DNA from: a bacterium
GTDB taxonomy: Bacteria > Bacillota > Sulfobacillia > UBA995
NCBI GenBank assembly: GCA_031082145.1
Contig: JAVHLP010000005.1
Location: 34,676 to 98,675 of the forward strand
DNA: 64,000 bases
Reading direction: 5' to 3'
In this document: positions 3,513 to 60,061 of the stretch, in pieces
How the letters are laid out: every line of letters begins with the position of its first letter
How positions within the stretch are numbered: the first letter of the stretch is position 1
Made by a program: the position numbers and the translations under genes
The notes under the pieces: model-generated
The model's database searches: none
Seen by the model: only the letters and a program-made list of their open reading frames with translations
What the model was told of the DNA's origin: nothing

Positions 3513-4808
3513 TTGAAGCCGAACGTTCCCAGGGTGCCGGCCAAGCGAGGCCGGCGGCGGATCAGGATCCGCTGGCGGAACGTGGCTCTCGTGGCAGCCG
3601 GGCTGTTTCTGATTGCCGTTGGTCTGGCCTGCTATGCCTTTTACAGTTTCCTCAGCGGGTTTCAGGACGTTGAGTCCCGGGAGTTCGGGCTGCCGGTGCC
3701 CGAGCCGGGGCAGCGAGTGAACGTTCTCGTACTGGGCATTGACCTGCCACAGGATCCGGTCACGGGAGAGATCTTGGAAGTCGACTTCCGCCAGGCCAAG
3801 TTCTGGCCGCGGAGCGACACCATCATGGTGGTCAGCGTCGACCCCGAGACTCGAGAGGTAGGGGTTATCTCCATCCCCCGGGATACGCGGGTCAAGATCG
3901 CCTGGGACGCCAAGGGTTACGAGAAAATCAACCACGCCCACGCTTACGGCGGCCCCCGTATGGCGGTCAAGACGGTGGAGAACTTCCTCGAGATCCCGAT
4001 CCACTACTACGTGCGCACCGATCCCCGGGGTTTCGCGGCCGTGGTGGATATCCTGGGTGGGATCGAGCTCGAGGTCGAGAAGGACATGTACTACGAGGAT
4101 CCGTATCAGGATTTGGTCATTGACCTCAAGAAGGGCCGCCAAGTCCTGGACGGGCACATGGCCATGCAGTACACGCGTTACCGGTCGGACTCCGACATCG
4201 CCCGGGTTTTGCGCCAACAGAGGTTCCTGGAGGCCCTGAAGCGAGAGCTCTTCCAGTTCGGCACTATCCTCAAGCTTCCCAAGCTGGCCGGCGAGCTGCT
4301 GAAGCACGTGGACACCAACATGGCCGCTTCCGACATCTTGAACTACGCCGTGATAGCCGCCCGCATAACCGCGGTCGAGTTGAACATGGCCACCATACCC
4401 GGGGAGGATCGTTGGATTGGCGGGGTTGCCTACTGGATGCCGGACCTCGATGGAACCCGTGTTCTGGTGGATCGCCTGATCTGGGGAATCGAGCCGGAGG
4501 AGAACGCTCTCATCCGCGTTGAGGTCCTGAACGGGACCGACAACGCCGGGCTGGCCAGCAAGCTGGCGGCTTCTCTGCAAGACCGCGGTTTCGCCGTAGT
4601 CCGCATCGCCAACGCCCCGGAGAACGGGATCCAGACCACCCAGGTGATAAACCTCGCCAGCGACGAGGACAAACTCCGGCGAGTGGTGGGCGTCATGCGC
4701 CGCGAACTGGATGAGCTGCAGCTCTTGCGCATAACCCGTCCCGGCGGCGAGGCTGACGTCCGGGTCGTCGTGGGACAAGACTACTACCGGCGTATCAACG
4801 GCGAGTGA
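3513..4808 (+). CDS. LytR-CpsA-Psr (LCP) family protein with a C-terminal LytR_C domain
   Basis: N-terminal TM segment. LCP core VLVLGID...RSDTIMVVSVDP...ISIPRDT...INHAHAYGG. C-terminal VEVLNGTDNAGLAS. Confidence 0.9.
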   Translation: MKPNVPRVPAKRGRRRIRIRWRNVALVAAGLFLIAVGLACYAFYSFLSGFQDVESREFGLPVPEPGQRVNVLVLGIDLPQDPVTGEILEVDFRQAKFWPRSDTIMVVSVDPETREVGVISIPRDTRVKIAWDAKGYEKINHAHAYGGPRMAVKTVENFLEIPIHYYVRTDPRGFAAVVDILGGIELEVEKDMYYEDPYQDLVIDLKKGRQVLDGHMAMQYTRYRSDSDIARVLRQQRFLEALKRELFQFGTILKLPKLAGELLKHVDTNMAASDILNYAVIAARITAVELNMATIPGEDRWIGGVAYWMPDLDGTRVLVDRLIWGIEPEENALIRVEVLNGTDNAGLASKLAASLQDRGFAVVRIANAPENGIQTTQVINLASDEDKLRRVVGVMRRELDELQLLRITRPGGEADVRVVVGQDYYRRINGE

Positions 4809-5200
4809 CGGGAGGAGGGGACAGGCTGGGGCCAGAGGAGCTGGCGGAGTTGGCTGCCCGGACGGGCACCGAGAAGAAGTCAGATAACGTGATCATCCTG
4901 GATATGCGGGAAGTGACGCTGGTGGCCGACTACTTCGTTATTCTCTCCGGTTCTTCCCGACCCCAGGTAAAAGCCATCGTCGATCATATCGAGAAGCAGT
5001 TGGAGATGACGGGTGCCAGGCCCCTGCGGTGCGAGGGCTACGCCGCCGCGCGCTGGGTGCTGCTGGACTACGGGGGCGTGGTGGTTCACGTCTTCCACGA
5101 GCAGGACCGAGCCTTCTACGCTCTCGAGCGGCTCTGGGGCGACGCCCCGGCACGGCGGCTGGATGGCGAAGCGACGGCCGGGACGGCCGGGGGGCAGTGA
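4805..5200 (+). CDS. rsfS: Ribosome silencing factor RsfS
   Basis: LVADYFVILSGSSRPQVKAI...WVLLDYGGVVVHVFHEQDRAFYALERLW is a typical RsfS/iojap sequence. Confidence 0.92.
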   Translation: MTGGGDRLGPEELAELAARTGTEKKSDNVIILDMREVTLVADYFVILSGSSRPQVKAIVDHIEKQLEMTGARPLRCEGYAAARWVLLDYGGVVVHVFHEQDRAFYALERLWGDAPARRLDGEATAGTAGGQ

Positions 5201-5231: not shown

Positions 5232-5594
5232 CTAGAGTTCCGCGATCCGTCCGGATGTCAGGTCGAGCTCAAGGTAGATCACGCCGGGCCGCCCATCTCG
5301 GGTGGCATACACGCGCTCACCCGTAGGCGCGAAGAGGTAGCCGCCTCCCGGGAAATCCTCATCCACCGTCCGCCCGGCCTGTGTCGACACCGCTATCCAC
5401 AAGCCATACTCCCGGGCCCACCGGCTGAGGTGCTCACAGCACTCGTCCTCCCACCAAGCGTAGCCGGCCGCCCAATCCCGCGTCGCCTGATCCCCACACA
5501 GCCCGGGATCAGCCACCTCGAAGACGATCTTGGCTGCCTGCCTGGCGCACTCGGCGAAGACCGTCTCGTTCATGAGTTGCCGTAGCGCGATCAC
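5232..5594 (-). CDS. Hypothetical protein resembling only the C-terminal half of a carbon-nitrogen hydrolase (possible gene remnant)
   Basis: GLCGDQ...REYGLWIAVS...GGGYLFAPTGERVYA...VIYLELDL resembles the Cys-to-C-terminus part of nitrilase-superfamily proteins. No N-terminal Glu/Lys half is present. Confidence 0.35.
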   Translation of the reverse strand: MIALRQLMNETVFAECARQAAKIVFEVADPGLCGDQATRDWAAGYAWWEDECCEHLSRWAREYGLWIAVSTQAGRTVDEDFPGGGYLFAPTGERVYATRDGRPGVIYLELDLTSGRIAEL

Positions 5595-5650
5595 CCCATC
5601 AGGCCGTGCAGCGCCGCCGCCATGACCTGAGCCTGGGCGCGGCCCGCAGC

Positions 5651-5679
5651 TTGACGTCGACCAGGGCGGGCCATATAAT
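5651..5679 (+). promoter_or_regulatory. Sigma-A promoter of the leuS leader (TTGACG-17-TATAAT)
   Basis: -35 TTGACG at 5651-5656, 17-nt spacer, consensus -10 TATAAT at 5674-5679. Confidence 0.75.
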
Positions 5680-5870
5680 CAGGATGTATGTGGGTGACGA
5701 CGGGGAGTAGTAGCCCCGGGCGAACCTCCAGAGAGCCGGGACGGGTGCGATCCGGCAGGTGAGCCCGAGGTGAACTCGCCCCCGAGCCTCCGGGAACGAA
5801 AGGGCTGAGCCCCACTAGTCCCGGCGCGGAACCGGCGTTAACGGTGGCAGAGCGGGCAGCAGTCTACCGT

Positions 5871-5946
5871 GGGGCCGTAGCTCAGCTGGGAGAGCGCTTG
5901 AATGGCATTCAAGAGGCCAGGGGTTCGACTCCCCTCGGCTCCACCA
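5871..5946 (+). tRNA. tRNA-Ala (anticodon GGC), CCA encoded
   Basis: 76-nt cloverleaf folded by hand.
- Acceptor GGGGCCG/CGGCTCC with the G3:U70 Ala identity pair.
- D arm GCTC-AGCTGGGA-GAGC.
- Anticodon arm CTTGA-ATGGCAT-TCAAG.
- T arm AGGGG-TTCGACT-CCCCT.
- A73-CCA end. Confidence 0.93.
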
Positions 5947-5985
5947 CGAACTCCGCTGCCAAGCAGGGTGGTACCGCGGGCAGGG

Positions 5986-6013
5986 TCCCGTCCCCGAGAG
6001 GACGGGATTTTTT
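5986..6013 (+). terminator. Intrinsic terminator of the leuS T-box
   Basis: TCCCGTCC (5986-5993) pairs with GGACGGGA (6000-6007), followed by TTTTTT. The 5' strand is shared with the antiterminator. Confidence 0.85.
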
Positions 6014-6035
6014 GTTAGGCGGGAGGAGGGGGGCC

Positions 6036-8519
6036 TTGGAAGATCGCTACGACTTCACCGGGGTGGAGTCCCGCTGGCAGCGGTGGTGGGATGAGACTGG
6101 GCTCTACCAGGTGGAACCTGATCCGGGGCGGCCGAAGTACTACCTCCTGGAGATGTACCCCTATCCCTCGGGTCCTCTTCATATGGGGCACGCCCGCAAC
6201 TACATCATCGGCGACGTCCTGGCCCGCTTCCAGGGCATGAATGGCCACAACGTGATGCATCCGATGGGGTACGACGCCTTCGGCCTGCCGGCGGAGAACG
6301 CAGCCCTGCAGCAGGGCACTCATCCCGCCGACTGGACCTACGACAACATCCGGATCATCCGCCGGCAATTCCGGATGCTGGGCATCAGCTACGACTGGCG
6401 CCGAGAGGTTGCCAGTTGCCATCCCGGCTACTACCACTGGACGCAGTGGATGTTCCTGCTCATGCACCGCCGGGGCCTGGCTTACCGGAAGCAGGCGGCC
6501 GTCAACTGGTGCCCGGGGTGTGCCACCGTACTGGCCAACGAGCAGGTGGAGGACGGGCGATGCTGGCGGTGCGAGAGTGAGGTAGACAAGAAAGAGCTGG
6601 ACCAGTGGTTCTTCCGGATCACCGCCTATGCCGACCGGCTGCTAGAGGACCTGAACCTGCTCGACGGCTGGCCGGAGCGGGTGCGGACCATGCAGCGCAA
6701 CTGGATCGGACGCAGCGAGGGGGTTGAGATCGACTTCCCCGTCCCGGCCGTGAACGATGCCTTGACCGTCTTCACCACAAGGCAGGACACTATCTTCGGG
6801 GTCACTTTCATGGCCCTGGCCCCGGAGCACCCCCTCCTACCCCGGTTGCTGGAGGGCAACGATCGCAGGCCGGCGATCCAGGCCTACGTGGATCGAGCCC
6901 GGCGGATGACCAGCATCGACCGCGCTTCCACGGCGAGGGAGAAGACGGGGCTGTTCACCGGCCACTACTGCATCAACCCGCTCTCGGGGGAGACCGTACC
7001 CATATGGGTGGCCGACTACGTGCTCATGGACTATGGAACGGGAGCAGTCATGGGTGTGCCTGCCCACGACCAGCGCGACTTCGAGTTCGTGAAGGAACAC
7101 GGCCTGCCGCTAAGAGTCGTCATCCAGCCGCTGGAGGGTCCGGAACTCGACGAGTCCACCCTACAGGAGGCAGTCCCGGCCTACGGGCGGATGGTCAACT
7201 CCGGCCGCTTCAACGGTCTGGCCCTGGATGAAGCCTTGGCCCGGGTAGCCGAACACATCGAGGAGCGGCGCCTGGGGCGGAGAGCCGTCAACTACCGGCT
7301 GCGCGACTGGCTGATCTCCCGTCAGCGATACTGGGGCGCCCCGATACCGATGATCCACTGCGAGAACTGCGGCATCGTTCCCGTGCCGGAGGCCGACCTG
7401 CCGGTCCTGCTACCCGATAAGGTTGACTTCAGGCCCCGGGGCATGTCCCCGCTGGCATCCAGCCCCGAGTTCCTGGCCGTGGACTGCCCTGATTGCGGCC
7501 GGGCAGCCCGCAGGGAAACCGACACCATGGATACCTTCGTATGCTCGTCGTGGTACTTCTTGCGCTACTTGTCTCCCCGCTACCAGGGTGGCCCCTTCCG
7601 GCCGGCGGAAGCCGGCTACTGGATGCCGGTGGACCAGTACGTGGGGGGGATCGAGCACGCCGTGCTGCACCTGTTGTACTCCCGTTTCTTCACCAAGGTC
7701 CTCGCTGACGAGGGACTGGTCAGGGAGGTGGAGCCCTTCCGGCGCCTGTTGACGCAGGGCATGGTCCTGAAGGATGGCGCGGCCATGTCCAAGTCGAAGG
7801 GGACGGGGGTTGCCCCCGACGACATGGTCGCCAGGTACGGGGCTGATGCCGTCCGGTTGAACACCTTGTTCGCCGGCCCGCCGGACAAGGACTTCGAGTG
7901 GACCGATCAGGGTATGGAGGGTGCCGCCCGCTTTGTCTCCCGGGTCTGGCGCCTGGTCCGCGCCTGGAAAACCGGGTGCCAGGGTCCCGCCCGGCCCTTG
8001 AGCCCGGCCGACGGTGAACTGAGGCGTGTCCTGCATGCTTCCCTTCGCCGGATGACCGTCGACGTGGGTGAACGCCTGCAGCTGAATACCGCGCTGGCGG
8101 CGGCCATGGAGATGGTCAACGCGGCCTATGCCTATCGGGAGAAGGTGGCCGAGGAGGAGCAGAACCCGGCGGTCGCCGCGGAATTCCTGGACTGCCTGGT
8201 GAAAGCCATCGCCCCCTTCCTCCCCCACCTGGCCGAGGAGCTCTGGCAGGTTGAGCTGGGGCGCGATGGCAGCGTGCACCGGCAGAACTGGCCCCGGCAC
8301 GACGCTGGGGCCCTCGCTGCCGACGAGGTGACGCTGGTGGTACAGGTGAACGGCCGGGTACGGGACCGGCTGGTCGTCCCCGCCGGCCTGACCGATGAGG
8401 GGGAGATCCGCCGTCGGGTGCTCGCGCTGGACCGGGTCGGTCGGGCCCTTGACGGCCGGCCGATCGCCCGCGTGGTGGTGGTTCCCGGCAAGCTCGTGAA
8501 CGTGGTGGCTGAGGGCTAG
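6036..8519 (+). CDS. leuS: Leucine--tRNA ligase
   Basis: HMGH and KMSKS-type (AMSKSKG) motifs and class Ia LeuRS architecture. TTG 6036 follows RBS GGGAGGAGG. The ORF-track start at 5844 runs through the tRNA and the terminator and was rejected. Confidence 0.95.
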
Positions 8520-12496: not shown

Positions 12497-12583
12497 GGGG
12501 ACCGCTAGGGGAGCCCGTGAGGGCTGAGAAGGCGACTGCGCCGACCCTGGAACCTGACCTGGATAATGCCAGCGTAGGGAAGT
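12497..12583 (+). promoter_or_regulatory. TPP (THI-box) riboswitch
   Basis: CTAGGGGAGCC...GGGCTGAGA...ACCCTGGAACCTGACCTGGATAATGCCAGCGTAGGGAAG matches the TPP aptamer consensus. A thiamine transporter gene lies immediately downstream. Confidence 0.9.
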
Positions 12584-12632
12584 GGCCCTGACACCGCTCG
12601 ACCTGAGCGGCCCCCGAGAGGAGGGTCCGCTC

Positions 12633-56859: not shown

Positions 56860-57089
56860 AGAGAACGTGGGCGGTGACGGAGAGGAGTAGCCGGAAGGGC
56901 GCTGTTCAGCGAGCCGGAGATGAGGGTGGGAAGTCCGGCCGGTTGCCCCCGGTGAAGGCGCTCCCGAGCCCCAGGAGGAAACCCCGCCTGCCGGGGGAGT
57001 AAAGCCTGGATAATTGAGGGGCCGCCGCACGGCGGCAACCAGGGTGGAACCGCGGGGTGTCTCCCGTCCCTGGAAGGGGCGGGAGATTT
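56860..57089 (+). promoter_or_regulatory. T-box leader (Gly, GGC specifier) controlling glyQS
   Basis: - Stem I elements: GTGACGG, AGTAG, AG bulge AGCGAG, distal loop AGGGTGGGAA.
- Specifier GAA-GGC-G, with GGC at 56957-56959.
- Short Stem III GCCGCCG-cac-GGCGGC.
- T-box GGGTGGAACCGCG at 57042-57054 (UGGA matches U73 of tRNA-Gly). Confidence 0.9.
57060..57089 (+). terminator. Terminator of the glyQS T-box
   Basis: 11-bp stem TCTCCCGTCCC/GGGGCGGGAGA followed by a short TTT tract. Confidence 0.7.
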
Positions 57090-57112
57090 GACTTGCACGG
57101 GAGGTGCTCGGG

Positions 57113-57988
57113 ATGACCTTTCAGGACATCATCGCCCGGTTGCACCAGTTCTGGGCCGAACAGGGCTGCGCCGTGGTCCAGGCGTACGATGTGGAGACCG
57201 GGGCGGGCACCATGCACCCCGCCACCTTCCTGCGGGTGCTCGGGCCCGAGCCCTGGAAGGTCGCCTACGTGCAGCCTTGCCGGCGCCCGGCGGACGGTCG
57301 CTACGGCGACAATCCTAACCGGTTGTACCAGCACCACCAGTACCAGGTGATCCTCAAGCCATCCCCGGATGACGTTCAGCAACTGTACCTGGAGAGCCTG
57401 GAGGCTCTGGGATTGCGGCTGCGGGAACATGACGTGCGTTTTGTGGAGGACAACTGGGAGGCTCCCACCCTGGCCGCATGGGGCCTGGGCTGGGAGGTGT
57501 GGCTGGACAGCCTGGAGATCACCCAGTTCACCTATTTCCAGCAGGTCGGGGGATACGACTGCCGTCCCATCCCGGTGGAGCTGGCCTACGGTTTGGAGCG
57601 GCTTGCTGCCTACCTGCAGGAAGTGGACAGCGTGTATGACCTGACCTGGTCCGAGGGACTCACTTACCGCGACCTCTTTCACCGGGCCGAGGTCGAGCAC
57701 TCGACCTACTCCCTAAAGGAAGCCGATCCGGCGGCCCTGGGACGCCTCTTTGAGCTTGCCGAGGTCGAGGCCGGACGAGCGCTGGAGTGCGGGCTGGTGC
57801 TCCCCGCCTACGACCACGTACTGCGCTGCTCCCATAGCTTCAACATCCTGGACGCCCGGGGAGTCATGGGTGTGGCCCAGCGGGCGGCCATGCTCGGCCG
57901 GGTGCAGCGGTTGGCCCGGCAGTGTGCCCAGGTTCATCTCAAGCATCGCGAAGCGGCGGGCTACCCGCTGCTCCGGCAGTACGCCTAG
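57113..57988 (+). CDS. glyQ: Glycine--tRNA ligase alpha subunit
   Basis: [19 protein letters not shown] is the canonical GlyQ N-terminus. ATG 57113 follows GGGAGGTG. Confidence 0.95.
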
Positions 57989-57994
57989 GGGGTT

Positions 57995-60061
57995 GTGGAC
58001 GTGCCTGTCGAGGACCTGGTTTTCGAGATCGGCACCGAGGAGATTCCCTCTCGCCTGCTGGGCGAGGCGCTGGTGCAGTTGGCGGAGGTGGCCGCTCGGA
58101 GACTGGCGGAGGCCAGACTGGGCCACGGCGCCTTGCGGGCCGTGGGCACTCCCCGGCGGCTGGCCCTGCTCGTGGACGGGGTGGCTCCTGCCCAGGAGGA
58201 CCTCCTGACCGAGGTGAAAGGGCCTCCTGTTCGTGCCGCCTTCGACGGCGAAGGGAAGCCCACCCCGGCGGCCGAGGGGTTTGCCCGCGGCCAAGGGCTG
58301 GCGGTCTCCGAGCTGGTGGCCCGCGACAACTATGTTTACGCCGTCCGCCGGGAACCGGGGCGGCCGGCTCGTGAGGTCTTGGCCCGGTTGCTGCCTGACA
58401 TCGTGACCGGCCTGGAGTTCGCCCGGCCGATGCGCTGGGGGACCGGGGAAACCAAGTTCGTCCGCCCCATCCGGTGGCTCCTGACCCTGCTAGGTGACCA
58501 GGTAGTGGAGTTCGAGTTCGCGGGGCTGGCTTCCAGCCGCTGGACCGGCGGGCACCGCTTCCTGGGGCCGGGGCCGCACGAGGTTGACAGCGCTCGGGAT
58601 TACCTGGCGGTCATGCGGCGGGCCCGGGTGATCGTCGATCCCGAGGCAAGGCGGGACCAGGTTCGGGAGCAGGTCGAGAAGGCCGGCCGCGAGGCCAACG
58701 GCGTTGTCTTCTGGGTTCCGGGGTTATTGGACGAGGTGGCCGGCCTGGTCGAATACCCCACCGCCCTGACCGGCCGCTTCGACGCTGGTTACCTGGAACT
58801 GCCCCGCGAGTTGCTGGTCACGGTCATGCGGCATCACCAGCGGTGCTTCCCGGTGGAGGACCGGGCGGGCCGGTTGCTGCCCGCCTTTGTCGCCGTCCGC
58901 TGCGGTGATGGCCGGGGCCGGGAGCGGGTGGTCCGGGGCAACGAGGGGGTGTTGCGGGCCCGGTTGGCCGACGCTCGTTTCTTCTTCCGGGAAGACCTGC
59001 AGACCCCACTGGAATCGCTCTTGCCCCGGCTGGACGAGATGGTTTTTGCCGAGGGCTTGGGGACCATGGGCGACCGGGTAGCCCGCATCGTGGCCCTAAC
59101 CGGCTACCTGGCCCATGAACTGGAGCTTGGCGAGCGGGAGACCGCCGTCGCGGTGCGGGCCGCCCAACTCGCCAAGGCCGACCTGGCCACCCGCATGGTC
59201 TACGAGTACCCGGAGCTGGAAGGGGTCATGGGAGGGGAGTACGCGCTACGGTCAGGCGAGGACGCGGAGGTGGCTCAGGCCATACGCGAGCACTACCTCC
59301 CCCGTACGGCTACCGGCGACCTTCCCGCGTCGGTGCCCGGGGCCGTTGTCGGCTTGGCCGACCGTCTCGACGCCCTAGTCGCCTTCTTCGGCTCCGGTGT
59401 CGAAGCTACCGGCTCCCAGGATCCCCTCGGCCAGCGGCGGCTGGGCGCCGGGGCGATCCGGCTGCTGACGGCATCCCTGCCGGGACTGCCCCTACGGCGG
59501 GCGATCGCCCGGGCGGGAGAGGCGCAGCGGCTACCGGCCGGCGAGCACGAAGCCCGGCTGCTCGACTTCCTGCTGGTACGCTTCAAGTCGCTCCTGGCCG
59601 AGGAGGGATTCCGGCCAGATGTAGTGGAGGCTGTTCTGGCAGCCGGGGTCGACCCTCTCGACCAGGCCCTGGCCCGGATTCGGGCCTTGACCCGCTTCCA
59701 GAGCTCCCCTCTCTCTGTCGATCTGACCGCCGCCCACACTCGAGTCTCGGGCCTGGCGCGGCGGGCGCCGGCGGGCCGCGAGGTCAACCCCGCGACCTTC
59801 ACGGAGCGGGTGGAGCGGGATCTCCACCGGGCATTCGTGAATGCCCGGCAGGGCGCCCTACCCCTGCTGGAGCGGGGGGCATACGAGGACTTCTGGTCTT
59901 GCCTGGCCCGCTTGCGGGGGCCGGTGGACGCGTTCTTCGACGGGGTCATGGTAATGGTGGACGACGCCGGTCTTCGCGACAACCGGCTCGCCCTGCTGCG
60001 AGACATCGCCGGGCTCATGACCACCGCGGCCGATCTGGGCCGCCTGGCCGGGGACGGCTAG
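57995..60061 (+). CDS. glyS: Glycine--tRNA ligase beta subunit
   Basis: LVFEIGTEEIP N-terminus, 688 aa, immediately downstream of glyQ. Confidence 0.95.
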   Translation: MDVPVEDLVFEIGTEEIPSRLLGEALVQLAEVAARRLAEARLGHGALRAVGTPRRLALLVDGVAPAQEDLLTEVKGPPVRAAFDGEGKPTPAAEGFARGQGLAVSELVARDNYVYAVRREPGRPAREVLARLLPDIVTGLEFARPMRWGTGETKFVRPIRWLLTLLGDQVVEFEFAGLASSRWTGGHRFLGPGPHEVDSARDYLAVMRRARVIVDPEARRDQVREQVEKAGREANGVVFWVPGLLDEVAGLVEYPTALTGRFDAGYLELPRELLVTVMRHHQRCFPVEDRAGRLLPAFVAVRCGDGRGRERVVRGNEGVLRARLADARFFFREDLQTPLESLLPRLDEMVFAEGLGTMGDRVARIVALTGYLAHELELGERETAVAVRAAQLAKADLATRMVYEYPELEGVMGGEYALRSGEDAEVAQAIREHYLPRTATGDLPASVPGAVVGLADRLDALVAFFGSGVEATGSQDPLGQRRLGAGAIRLLTASLPGLPLRRAIARAGEAQRLPAGEHEARLLDFLLVRFKSLLAEEGFRPDVVEAVLAAGVDPLDQALARIRALTRFQSSPLSVDLTAAHTRVSGLARRAPAGREVNPATFTERVERDLHRAFVNARQGALPLLERGAYEDFWSCLARLRGPVDAFFDGVMVMVDDAGLRDNRLALLRDIAGLMTTAADLGRLAGDG

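Follow-up and report, generated by a model that had tools for sequence, protein, structure and literature searches.

The leuS leader and the tRNA gene in its Stem III

In a 64,000-nucleotide (nt) stretch of bacterial DNA, the window of this analysis (GCA_031082145.1, contig JAVHLP010000005.1, positions 34,676 to 98,675), the leucyl-tRNA synthetase gene leuS is preceded by a leader that combines a T-box riboswitch with a gene for tRNA-Ala(GGC). By sequence and predicted structure, this leader has every structural hallmark of a T-box and of a tRNA-Ala gene. In the preferred reading, given a probability of roughly 0.8, a functional transcription-attenuating leucine T-box controls leuS, with a functional tRNA-Ala(GGC) gene in place of the apical loop of its Stem III. 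All elements of the leader, and leuS itself, lie on the forward strand.

The leader opens with a sigma-70-type promoter, TTGACG-17-TATAAT (5651-5679), which matches at 11 of 12 positions and is the single promoter-like site in a scan of 5300-6300 (0.1 expected from shuffles). A search of 5600-6100 with the Rfam T-box model RF00230 under permissive filters returns a full-length match (model positions 1-219) at 5688-5998, with 59.6 bits and E=1.6e-12. The alignment places Stem I with its kink-turn (K-turn)/GA motif (5694-5787), the AG bulge AGAGAG (5730-5735), the distal loop GGUGCGA (5744-5750) and the specifier loop GAA-CUC-G (5772-5778), whose leucine codon CUC (5775-5777) is followed by the purine G and agrees with the regulated gene. 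Beyond Stem I come Stem II with its S-turn GAACGAAA.../...ACUAGU (5790-5824), Stem IIA/B (5825-5837) and the F-box CGUUA (5836-5840).

Over the whole 64 kb of the window, ARAGORN predicts a single tRNA, a 76-nt tRNA-Ala(GGC) at 5871-5946 in the apical loop of Stem III, and the Rfam tRNA model recovers the same gene with 65.5 bits against a threshold of 29. Its anticodon GGC lies at 5904-5906, the CCA end is encoded, and the acceptor strands GGGGCCG/CGGCUCC give the pair G3:U70 beneath the discriminator base A73. G3:U70 is the major identity element for alanyl-tRNA synthetase (AlaRS). Judged from these features, the gene looks complete and functional.

The tRNA and its short spacers form a 92-nt insertion in the Stem III loop of the RF00230 alignment. 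On the 5' side, the purine string GAGCG (RRRxG) and the Stem III strand GGCAGC-AGU (5855-5863) together occupy 5850-5863. On the 3' side, the strand ACU-cc-GCUGCC (5950-5960) is followed by the conserved AA, ending at 5962. A minimum-free-energy fold of 5855-5960 alone pairs GGCAGCAGU with ACU..GCUGCC around the cloverleaf at -45.3 kcal/mol. The spacing is tight, with 30 nt from F-box to tRNA and 19 nt from tRNA to T-box sequence.

The expression platform follows directly. The antiterminator (5965-5995) comprises the T-box sequence GGGUGGUACCGCG (5966-5978), its UGGU bulge and helices A1 and A2. In T-boxes, the 7-nt bulge of this sequence begins with UGGN and is complementary to the NCCA end of a tRNA; the UGGU of the window is accordingly complementary to the A73-C-C-A end of an uncharged tRNA. 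An intrinsic terminator (5983-6013; fold, -18.0 kcal/mol) consists of the stem 5987-5993/6000-6006, the loop CCGAGA and a run of six T at 6008-6013. Its 5' strand shares 5987-5995 with the 3' strand of the antiterminator, which makes the two structures mutually exclusive. A consensus terminator scan of 5300-6300 reported none, the T6-tailed hairpin at 5987-6006 included. This miss is probably an artefact of the scan, the stem having been drawn through G·U pairs into the T-run. A ribosome-binding site, GGGAGGAGG (6021-6029), precedes leuS (6036-8519), which starts with TTG at 6036, stops at 8517-8519 and encodes 827 amino acids (aa) homologous to leucine--tRNA ligases.

The first-pass annotation, drawn from the letters of the window, had described the promoter, a complete-looking leucine sensing domain, a 76-nt tRNA-Ala(GGC) with G3:U70 and CCA at the Stem III position, and a T-box sequence, terminator, ribosome-binding site and leuS behind it. 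Alignment, folding, tRNA prediction and translation recover each of these. It had also held that the reading would fall if a covariance model did not recognise Stem I, or if the tRNA were flanked by a promoter or terminator of its own. Stem I is aligned over its full length, and the scan of 5300-6300 finds neither a promoter-like site nor a terminator in the interval from Stem II to the tRNA or in that from the tRNA to the T-box sequence.

Upstream of the leader promoter and divergent from it lies a 120-aa open reading frame (ORF; 5232-5594, reverse strand) without a Pfam match, which takes up most of the 450 nt that part rsfS (4805-5200) from the leader. The gene order LytR-rsfS-leader-leuS-comEA is common to the window and a relative (L161).

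Distribution and conservation of the nested leader

The first-pass annotation had proposed looking for the same nesting upstream of leuS in related genomes, and it is widespread there. GTDB species representatives, one genome per species, were scanned with the pattern GGTTCRANYCC-N{17,47}-GGGTGGNACCGCG, which describes any tRNA T-arm followed within 17-47 nt by a T-box motif. The scan gave at least 120 loci, and the family figures below refer to the matches listed. One family accounts for 112 of the 120: a tRNA-Ala(GGC) within a Leu(CUC) T-box. In 109 loci the match coincides with an ARAGORN tRNA call, which is tRNA-Ala(GGC) in 108, and four loci without a call hold that tRNA truncated at the edge of the locus. 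The other eight comprise chance hits to coding sequence, T-boxes of the ordinary kind and a tRNA that lies outside any T-box. At least 112 species-level genomes from several phyla thus carry the nested gene. This number is a lower bound, because it covers the matches listed and because the relatives L161 and L162 have the nesting with T-box sequence variants that escape the scan pattern. Nesting is therefore a conserved architecture by the evidence of these sequences, and not peculiar to the window.

Carriers in the Chloroflexota include Thermomicrobiales, Anaerolineae, Ktedonobacteria, Caldilineae, Limnocylindria and Thermoflexales; those in the Bacillota include Syntrophomonadaceae, Desulfotomaculia-type Peptococcaceae, Pelotomaculum and Thermacetogeniaceae. 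Further hosts are Armatimonadota, Coprothermobacterota, Caldisericota and some metagenome-assembled genomes (MAGs) of Actinomycetota. Cultured strains are among them, including Desulfofundulus thermosubterraneus DSM 16057, Thermosyntropha lipolytica DSM 11003, Desulfitispora alkaliphila DSM 22410 and Pelotomaculum thermopropionicum SI, whose published complete genome (AP009389.1) has the leader at about 843,837-844,136. A Chloroflexia chromosome (OY970217.1) is another complete carrier. LeuS identity among carriers falls to about 43%. The gene downstream is leuS in 109 of the 120 listed loci, within 400 nt in 84.

The reverse question, whether other tRNAs occupy the same place, was addressed with the same junction pattern in 241 million metagenome records, with T barred at tRNA position 70 so that all tRNA-Ala were excluded. 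None of the 35 matches is a tRNA nested in a T-box; a tRNA-Tyr followed by the motif (L128/L133) proved to be an integrase-associated tRNA site. As far as the scan patterns reach, the nesting is specific to tRNA-Ala(GGC) in leuS leaders.

Both components of the leader are conserved in the positions that matter for their proposed functions. A MAFFT alignment of 105 leaders among the matches listed has CUC in the specifier column of 104, with the preceding GAA and the following purine also conserved. The AG bulge AGNGA and the distal loop GGUGNRA are kept in about 100 of the 105, and the F-box C-G-U-U-A in 85-103. Statistics for the nested tRNAs cover 109 sequences, namely 108 scan loci among the matches listed and the window. 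G3:U70 and A73 are each present in all 109, CCA is encoded in 80, and position N(-1) is U in 70. Acceptor pairs 4-7 vary in a compensatory manner (GGGGCUG/CAGCUCC, GGGCCCA/UGGGUCC, GGGGAUG/CAUCUCC). The 109 genes comprise 78 distinct sequences with a mean pairwise identity of 0.79, compared with 0.54 for Stem I. The UGGU bulge is found in 106 of the 109 members, its last base U matching A73, and a T-run follows the T-box motif on its 3' side in 95.

Stem III itself covaries around the insert. Its base helix occurs in 64 distinct sequences, in which an average of 5.0 of the 6 pairs is formed; when partners are exchanged at random between sequences, the figure drops to 3.6 and does not go beyond 3.81 in 200 shuffles. 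Pair 2 alternates between G-C (40) and A-U (38), and pair 3 between C-G (45) and U-A (37). The flanks 5'-RRRxG...AA-3' of Stem III define the discriminator domain of T-boxes (PMC7583486), and they are retained in the nested family and in the window, with AA on the 3' side in 99 of 108 members among the matches listed. Judged by these patterns, the T-box and the tRNA-Ala identity elements are both under selection. Divergence of the tRNA follows that of LeuS (Spearman 0.26; 0 of 300 permutations above 0.13), which fits long co-inheritance and not repeated insertion.

Genes other than leuS can stand directly behind the leader. In a set of loci (L021, L043, L074, L076, L081, L086, L100 and L116; L035, L082, L118 and L165), the tRNA-containing leader heads an operon composed of a class IV (branched-chain) aminotransferase gene and leuS, or of an AMP-dependent ligase gene and leuS. 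The ligase form occurs, for example, in Desulfofundulus and in P. thermopropionicum SI, where the order is nested leader, ligase gene, leuS. A branched-chain aminotransferase between leader and leuS fits a leucine regulon.

In Anaerolineae-type loci (L024, L039, L041, L045, L091, L098, L111 and L124), an extra 450-720 nt separate the terminator from leuS. This stretch contains a conserved small ORF of about 55-75 aa (...DRLRELL...PVPVPVR...RRR*) and, closer to leuS, a conserved CTGCCTTCTCGCGGCCCTCC motif; it may be a second regulatory layer. An uncultured Chloroflexia MAG (L017, 2249-2317) has an ordinary-looking T-box with a long Stem III region containing a T-loop-like GGTTCGAACCC. ARAGORN finds no tRNA in that region, and the T-loop-like stretch may have arisen by chance or be left over from an insert that degraded.

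Proposed working and competing explanations

The anatomy suggests how such a leader would work. By the established T-box mechanism, uncharged tRNA-Leu(GAG) would pair with the CUC specifier through its anticodon and with the UGGU bulge through its ACCA end. The ACCA:UGGU pairing would stabilise the antiterminator and allow read-through into leuS, and charged tRNA-Leu would leave the terminator to form. Because the tRNA-Ala gene lies upstream of the terminator, each leader transcript, terminated or read through, would be a tRNA-Ala precursor, from which it would follow that the constitutive leader promoter doubles as the promoter of tRNA-Ala(GGC). RNase P and 3' processing would excise the tRNA and part the sensor (Stems I and II) from the switch, so that the termination decision would have to be made co-transcriptionally, within about 70 nt of the emergence of the tRNA. 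The roughly 90 additional nt may lengthen the time for capture of tRNA-Leu, and processing would leave the read-through mRNA with a 5' end near the terminator hairpin. That such leaders are transcribed and release their tRNA, in what order this happens, and whether nesting brings a gain are matters of inference. The precursor, the severing of sensor from switch and the co-transcriptional decision were already expected in the first-pass annotation, and reasonably so; for its further suggestion, steric competition of the embedded tRNA with tRNA-Leu, the sequences speak neither way.

Several precedents bear on this scheme. In Bacillus subtilis, a cut immediately 5' of the terminator in the thrS T-box leader gives the mRNA a stabilising 5' hairpin, RNase P cleaves the pbuE adenine riboswitch, and the met leader of Staphylococcus aureus tolerates a 150-nt insertion beside Stem III (PMC7913692). 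Insertions in Stem III are known from other T-boxes (PMC7583486), and pairing beside the cleavage site slows RNase P (PMC9433436).

Two elaborations of the mechanism were considered. A dual Leu/Ala specifier, with GCC following CUC in the window, is rejected, being contradicted by the identity of the bases, which are the conserved purine and the CC of the helix, and by GUC at that place in 38 of 105 members. Pairing in cis of the nested ACCA with the UGGU bulge lacks support as a conserved feature: 29 of 109 members have no CCA, and a 3'-extended end should mimic a charged tRNA.

Several observations weigh against the preferred reading. The T-box of the window scores 59.6 bits, below the Rfam gathering score for RF00230 of 93 bits, and a whole-window Rfam search at the gathering threshold reports no T-box. 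Losses also occur: the loci with 73-75% LeuS identity (L003/L004 and L005) have a short, unrelated leader without T-box or tRNA, and Neomoorella thermoacetica has leuS without the nested leader altogether. Since these genomes lack it, the nesting, ancient as it is, is dispensable and has been lost repeatedly. In addition, the argument for function of the nested leader is one from conservation, and regulation would fail if RNase P cut before the T-box decision.

As to the score, the gathering value is a curation threshold and not a structural feature. The ordinary glyQS T-box of the window, which the first-pass annotation had used for comparison and which indeed has a short Stem III, also falls below it: this Gly T-box with a GGC specifier (56865-57074, forward strand) scores 74.3 bits and precedes glyQ (57104-57988) and glyS (57995-60061), both on the same strand. 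At default thresholds, GC-rich T-boxes of this genome are thus under-called. Nested members from elsewhere score higher. The leader of P. thermopropionicum SI matches RF00230 with 125 bits, tRNA enclosed. Eight nested members from six phyla are all full-length matches that enclose the tRNA, with 67-133 bits, and five of the eight pass 93 bits (133, 116, 115, 95 and 94 bits). Rfam tRNA scores in the window and the relatives tested are 65-69 bits. The only other RNA family in the window to reach its gathering score is a thiamine pyrophosphate (TPP; THI element) aptamer at 12497-12597 on the forward strand, with 66.9 bits.

The window lineage is a deep, uncultured branch of the Bacillota with only three LeuS relatives above 70% identity. 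In L003, L004 and L005, the leader has a TTGTCA...TAACAT promoter and a small hairpin with a T-run, 3' of a phosphoglucomutase-like gene, which suggests a different, uncharacterised control of leuS. The nearest LeuS relative, at 77%, is represented by L001 (positions 1-400, the same as L002; GCA_020725145.1, DYFO01000018.1). There the tRNA is kept from the anticodon onward, with one T-stem mismatch, together with antiterminator and terminator. Sequence 5' of the anticodon is unrelated and GGGGACGGCC-rich, and the contig begins about 390 nt upstream of leuS. This half-tRNA may be what is left of a decayed leader, or the contig end may be chimeric. An anticodon-loop intron of group I was considered and set aside, the junction lacking the expected U/G splice-site context; a repeat or an end of an insertion sequence (IS) was likewise dropped when BLAST against the window and all loci gave nothing.

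Other explanations of the anatomy itself are improbable. The least probable, to which very little weight is given, is that two independent units simply lie side by side, with a separate promoter for the tRNA, or with Stem I reduced to a dead relic and leuS no longer under T-box control. The sub-threshold score of the window and the persistence of leuS in L001/L002, where the 5' part is missing or replaced, could be cited for such an arrangement. Against it stand the gaps of 30 nt and 19 nt on either side of the tRNA: the Stem III strands, which covary, and the conserved purine string occupy them, and the scan of 5300-6300 shows no internal promoter-like or terminator-like site. Nor does a relic explain why Stem I is conserved across phyla together with its CUC specifier, AG bulge and distal loop, or why relatives pass the Rfam threshold with the tRNA inside. 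It is also quite unlikely, though not to the same degree, that the insert is no longer a translational tRNA and stays in the leader as a structural riboswitch module, for example as a scaffold on which Stem III folds, as a spacer that puts off the decision to terminate, or as a decoy in cis for the Stem I platform. None of these roles needs a GGC anticodon (108 of 109 tRNAs called among the matches listed), nor G3:U70, A73, CCA and U at N(-1) at the frequencies given above (109, 109, 80 and 70 of 109). The module is disfavoured because the elements kept are the determinants for AlaRS, decoding and RNase P. Members are, moreover, all called as canonical tRNAs with the Rfam scores given above. 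What speaks for a module is the position of the insert, at the very point where Stem III can be extended (PMC7583486), the delay of about 90 nt of transcription that it puts between sensor and switch, and the pairing of its flanks close to the tRNA ends, a situation that slows RNase P (PMC9433436).

A further question is why the arrangement has persisted, and here two accounts share the anatomy of the preferred reading and differ in the cause of persistence. It is a serious possibility, though short of even odds, that the nesting is a neutral frozen accident: the tRNA landed in a tolerant loop and hitch-hikes because it is hard to relocate, only the shared promoter is selected, and tRNA processing brings no regulatory benefit. 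The patchy distribution with several clean losses, the co-divergence of tRNA and LeuS, and the lack of any other nested tRNA type in the scans, suggestive of a single historical event, are all compatible with an accident. For a neutral linkage, however, persistence over at least six phyla and over divergences that take LeuS identity to about 43% is long, and comparable processing of the thrS leader stabilises the mRNA (PMC7913692). More tentatively, and with all its parts taken jointly rather doubtful, excision of the nested tRNA may be a selected and integral step, making the leader a self-dismantling riboswitch. RNase P and 3' processing would then irreversibly part the tRNA-Leu sensor from the expression platform, force a purely co-transcriptional decision and allow bound tRNA-Leu and terminated leaders to be recycled. 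The terminator hairpin would become the protective 5' end of the read-through leuS mRNA, and the supply of tRNA-Ala(GGC) would be tied to the promoter of an aminoacyl-tRNA synthetase gene. Between a frozen accident and selected processing, sequence cannot decide.

Known parallels and implications

With the canonical transcriptional T-box (RF00230; B. subtilis tyrS, glyQS and leuS), the nested leader shares the full set of features: K-turn, specifier loop, AG bulge, distal loop, S-turn, F-box, RRRxG-Stem III-AA, UGGN bulge and an antiterminator that overlaps an intrinsic terminator. The two differ in the Stem III loop, which is a few nt in the canonical T-box and 92 nt in the nested leader, comprising the 76-nt tRNA-Ala gene and its spacers, and in that the nested leader would also be a tRNA precursor. 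Other T-boxes carry extra structure in or near the discriminator domain and still sense tRNA (PMC7913692, PMC7583486). Those Stem III-region insertions are plain hairpins confined to one genus or family, whereas the nested insert is a tRNA gene with its identity elements and crosses phyla.

Leader processing in thrS and pbuE offers another likeness, because a cut between sensor and terminator leaves a hairpin at the 5' end, as excision of the nested tRNA would (PMC7913692). The thrS cut, however, is at an RNase Y/J site and not at a tRNA, whereas the signal in the nested leader is a whole tRNA and its cleavage is predicted. GOLLD RNA resembles the nested leader in that a tRNA gene lies within, and is transcribed together with, a large structured noncoding RNA (PMC12990946). 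GOLLD is neither a riboswitch nor a tRNA sensor, and its tRNA types and positions vary, in contrast to the fixed tRNA type (Ala-GGC), host helix (Stem III) and gene (leuS) of the nested leader. In tRNA-mRNA co-transcripts such as the Escherichia coli thrU-tyrU-glyT-thrT-tufB operon, and in mitochondrial tRNA punctuation, a tRNA is matured from a protein-coding transcript, and RNase P and 3' processing set the 5' end of the mRNA. Unlike in the nested leader, the tRNA of such co-transcripts does not lie inside a helix of a regulatory RNA that needs continuous flanking strands.

The first-pass annotation knew of no T-box with a tRNA gene inside it, and the accessible literature, including the paper on the T-box database TBDB, Wels 2008 and a 2020 WIREs RNA review, yielded no description of one, though an earlier mention elsewhere is possible. 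The nested arrangement thus appears to be undescribed. Public pipelines must nevertheless already annotate both overlapping features, as in P. thermopropionicum. For annotation, the lesson is that tRNA and T-box calls can legitimately overlap, and that an insertion of about 90 nt lowers covariance-model scores, so that such leaders can drop under curated thresholds, as in the window.

The T-box is the standard textbook example of tRNA reading by an mRNA, and in the nested leader the gene of a different tRNA lies inside the "discriminator" helix of the aminoacylation sensor. The leader offers a natural experiment on the timing of co-transcriptional regulation, since the link between sensor and switch is the very segment that the tRNA maturation machinery excises. 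It also suggests that the leader transcripts of a synthetase gene, abundant and for the most part terminated, can double as a source of tRNA. Cultured carriers make tRNA release, its timing and its effect on leuS mRNA directly addressable. Across phyla, tRNA-Ala(GGC) is strictly paired with leuS, which marks a very old gene linkage, and if the self-dismantling account is true, the conservation of this pairing since before the split of Chloroflexota and Bacillota would reflect function.

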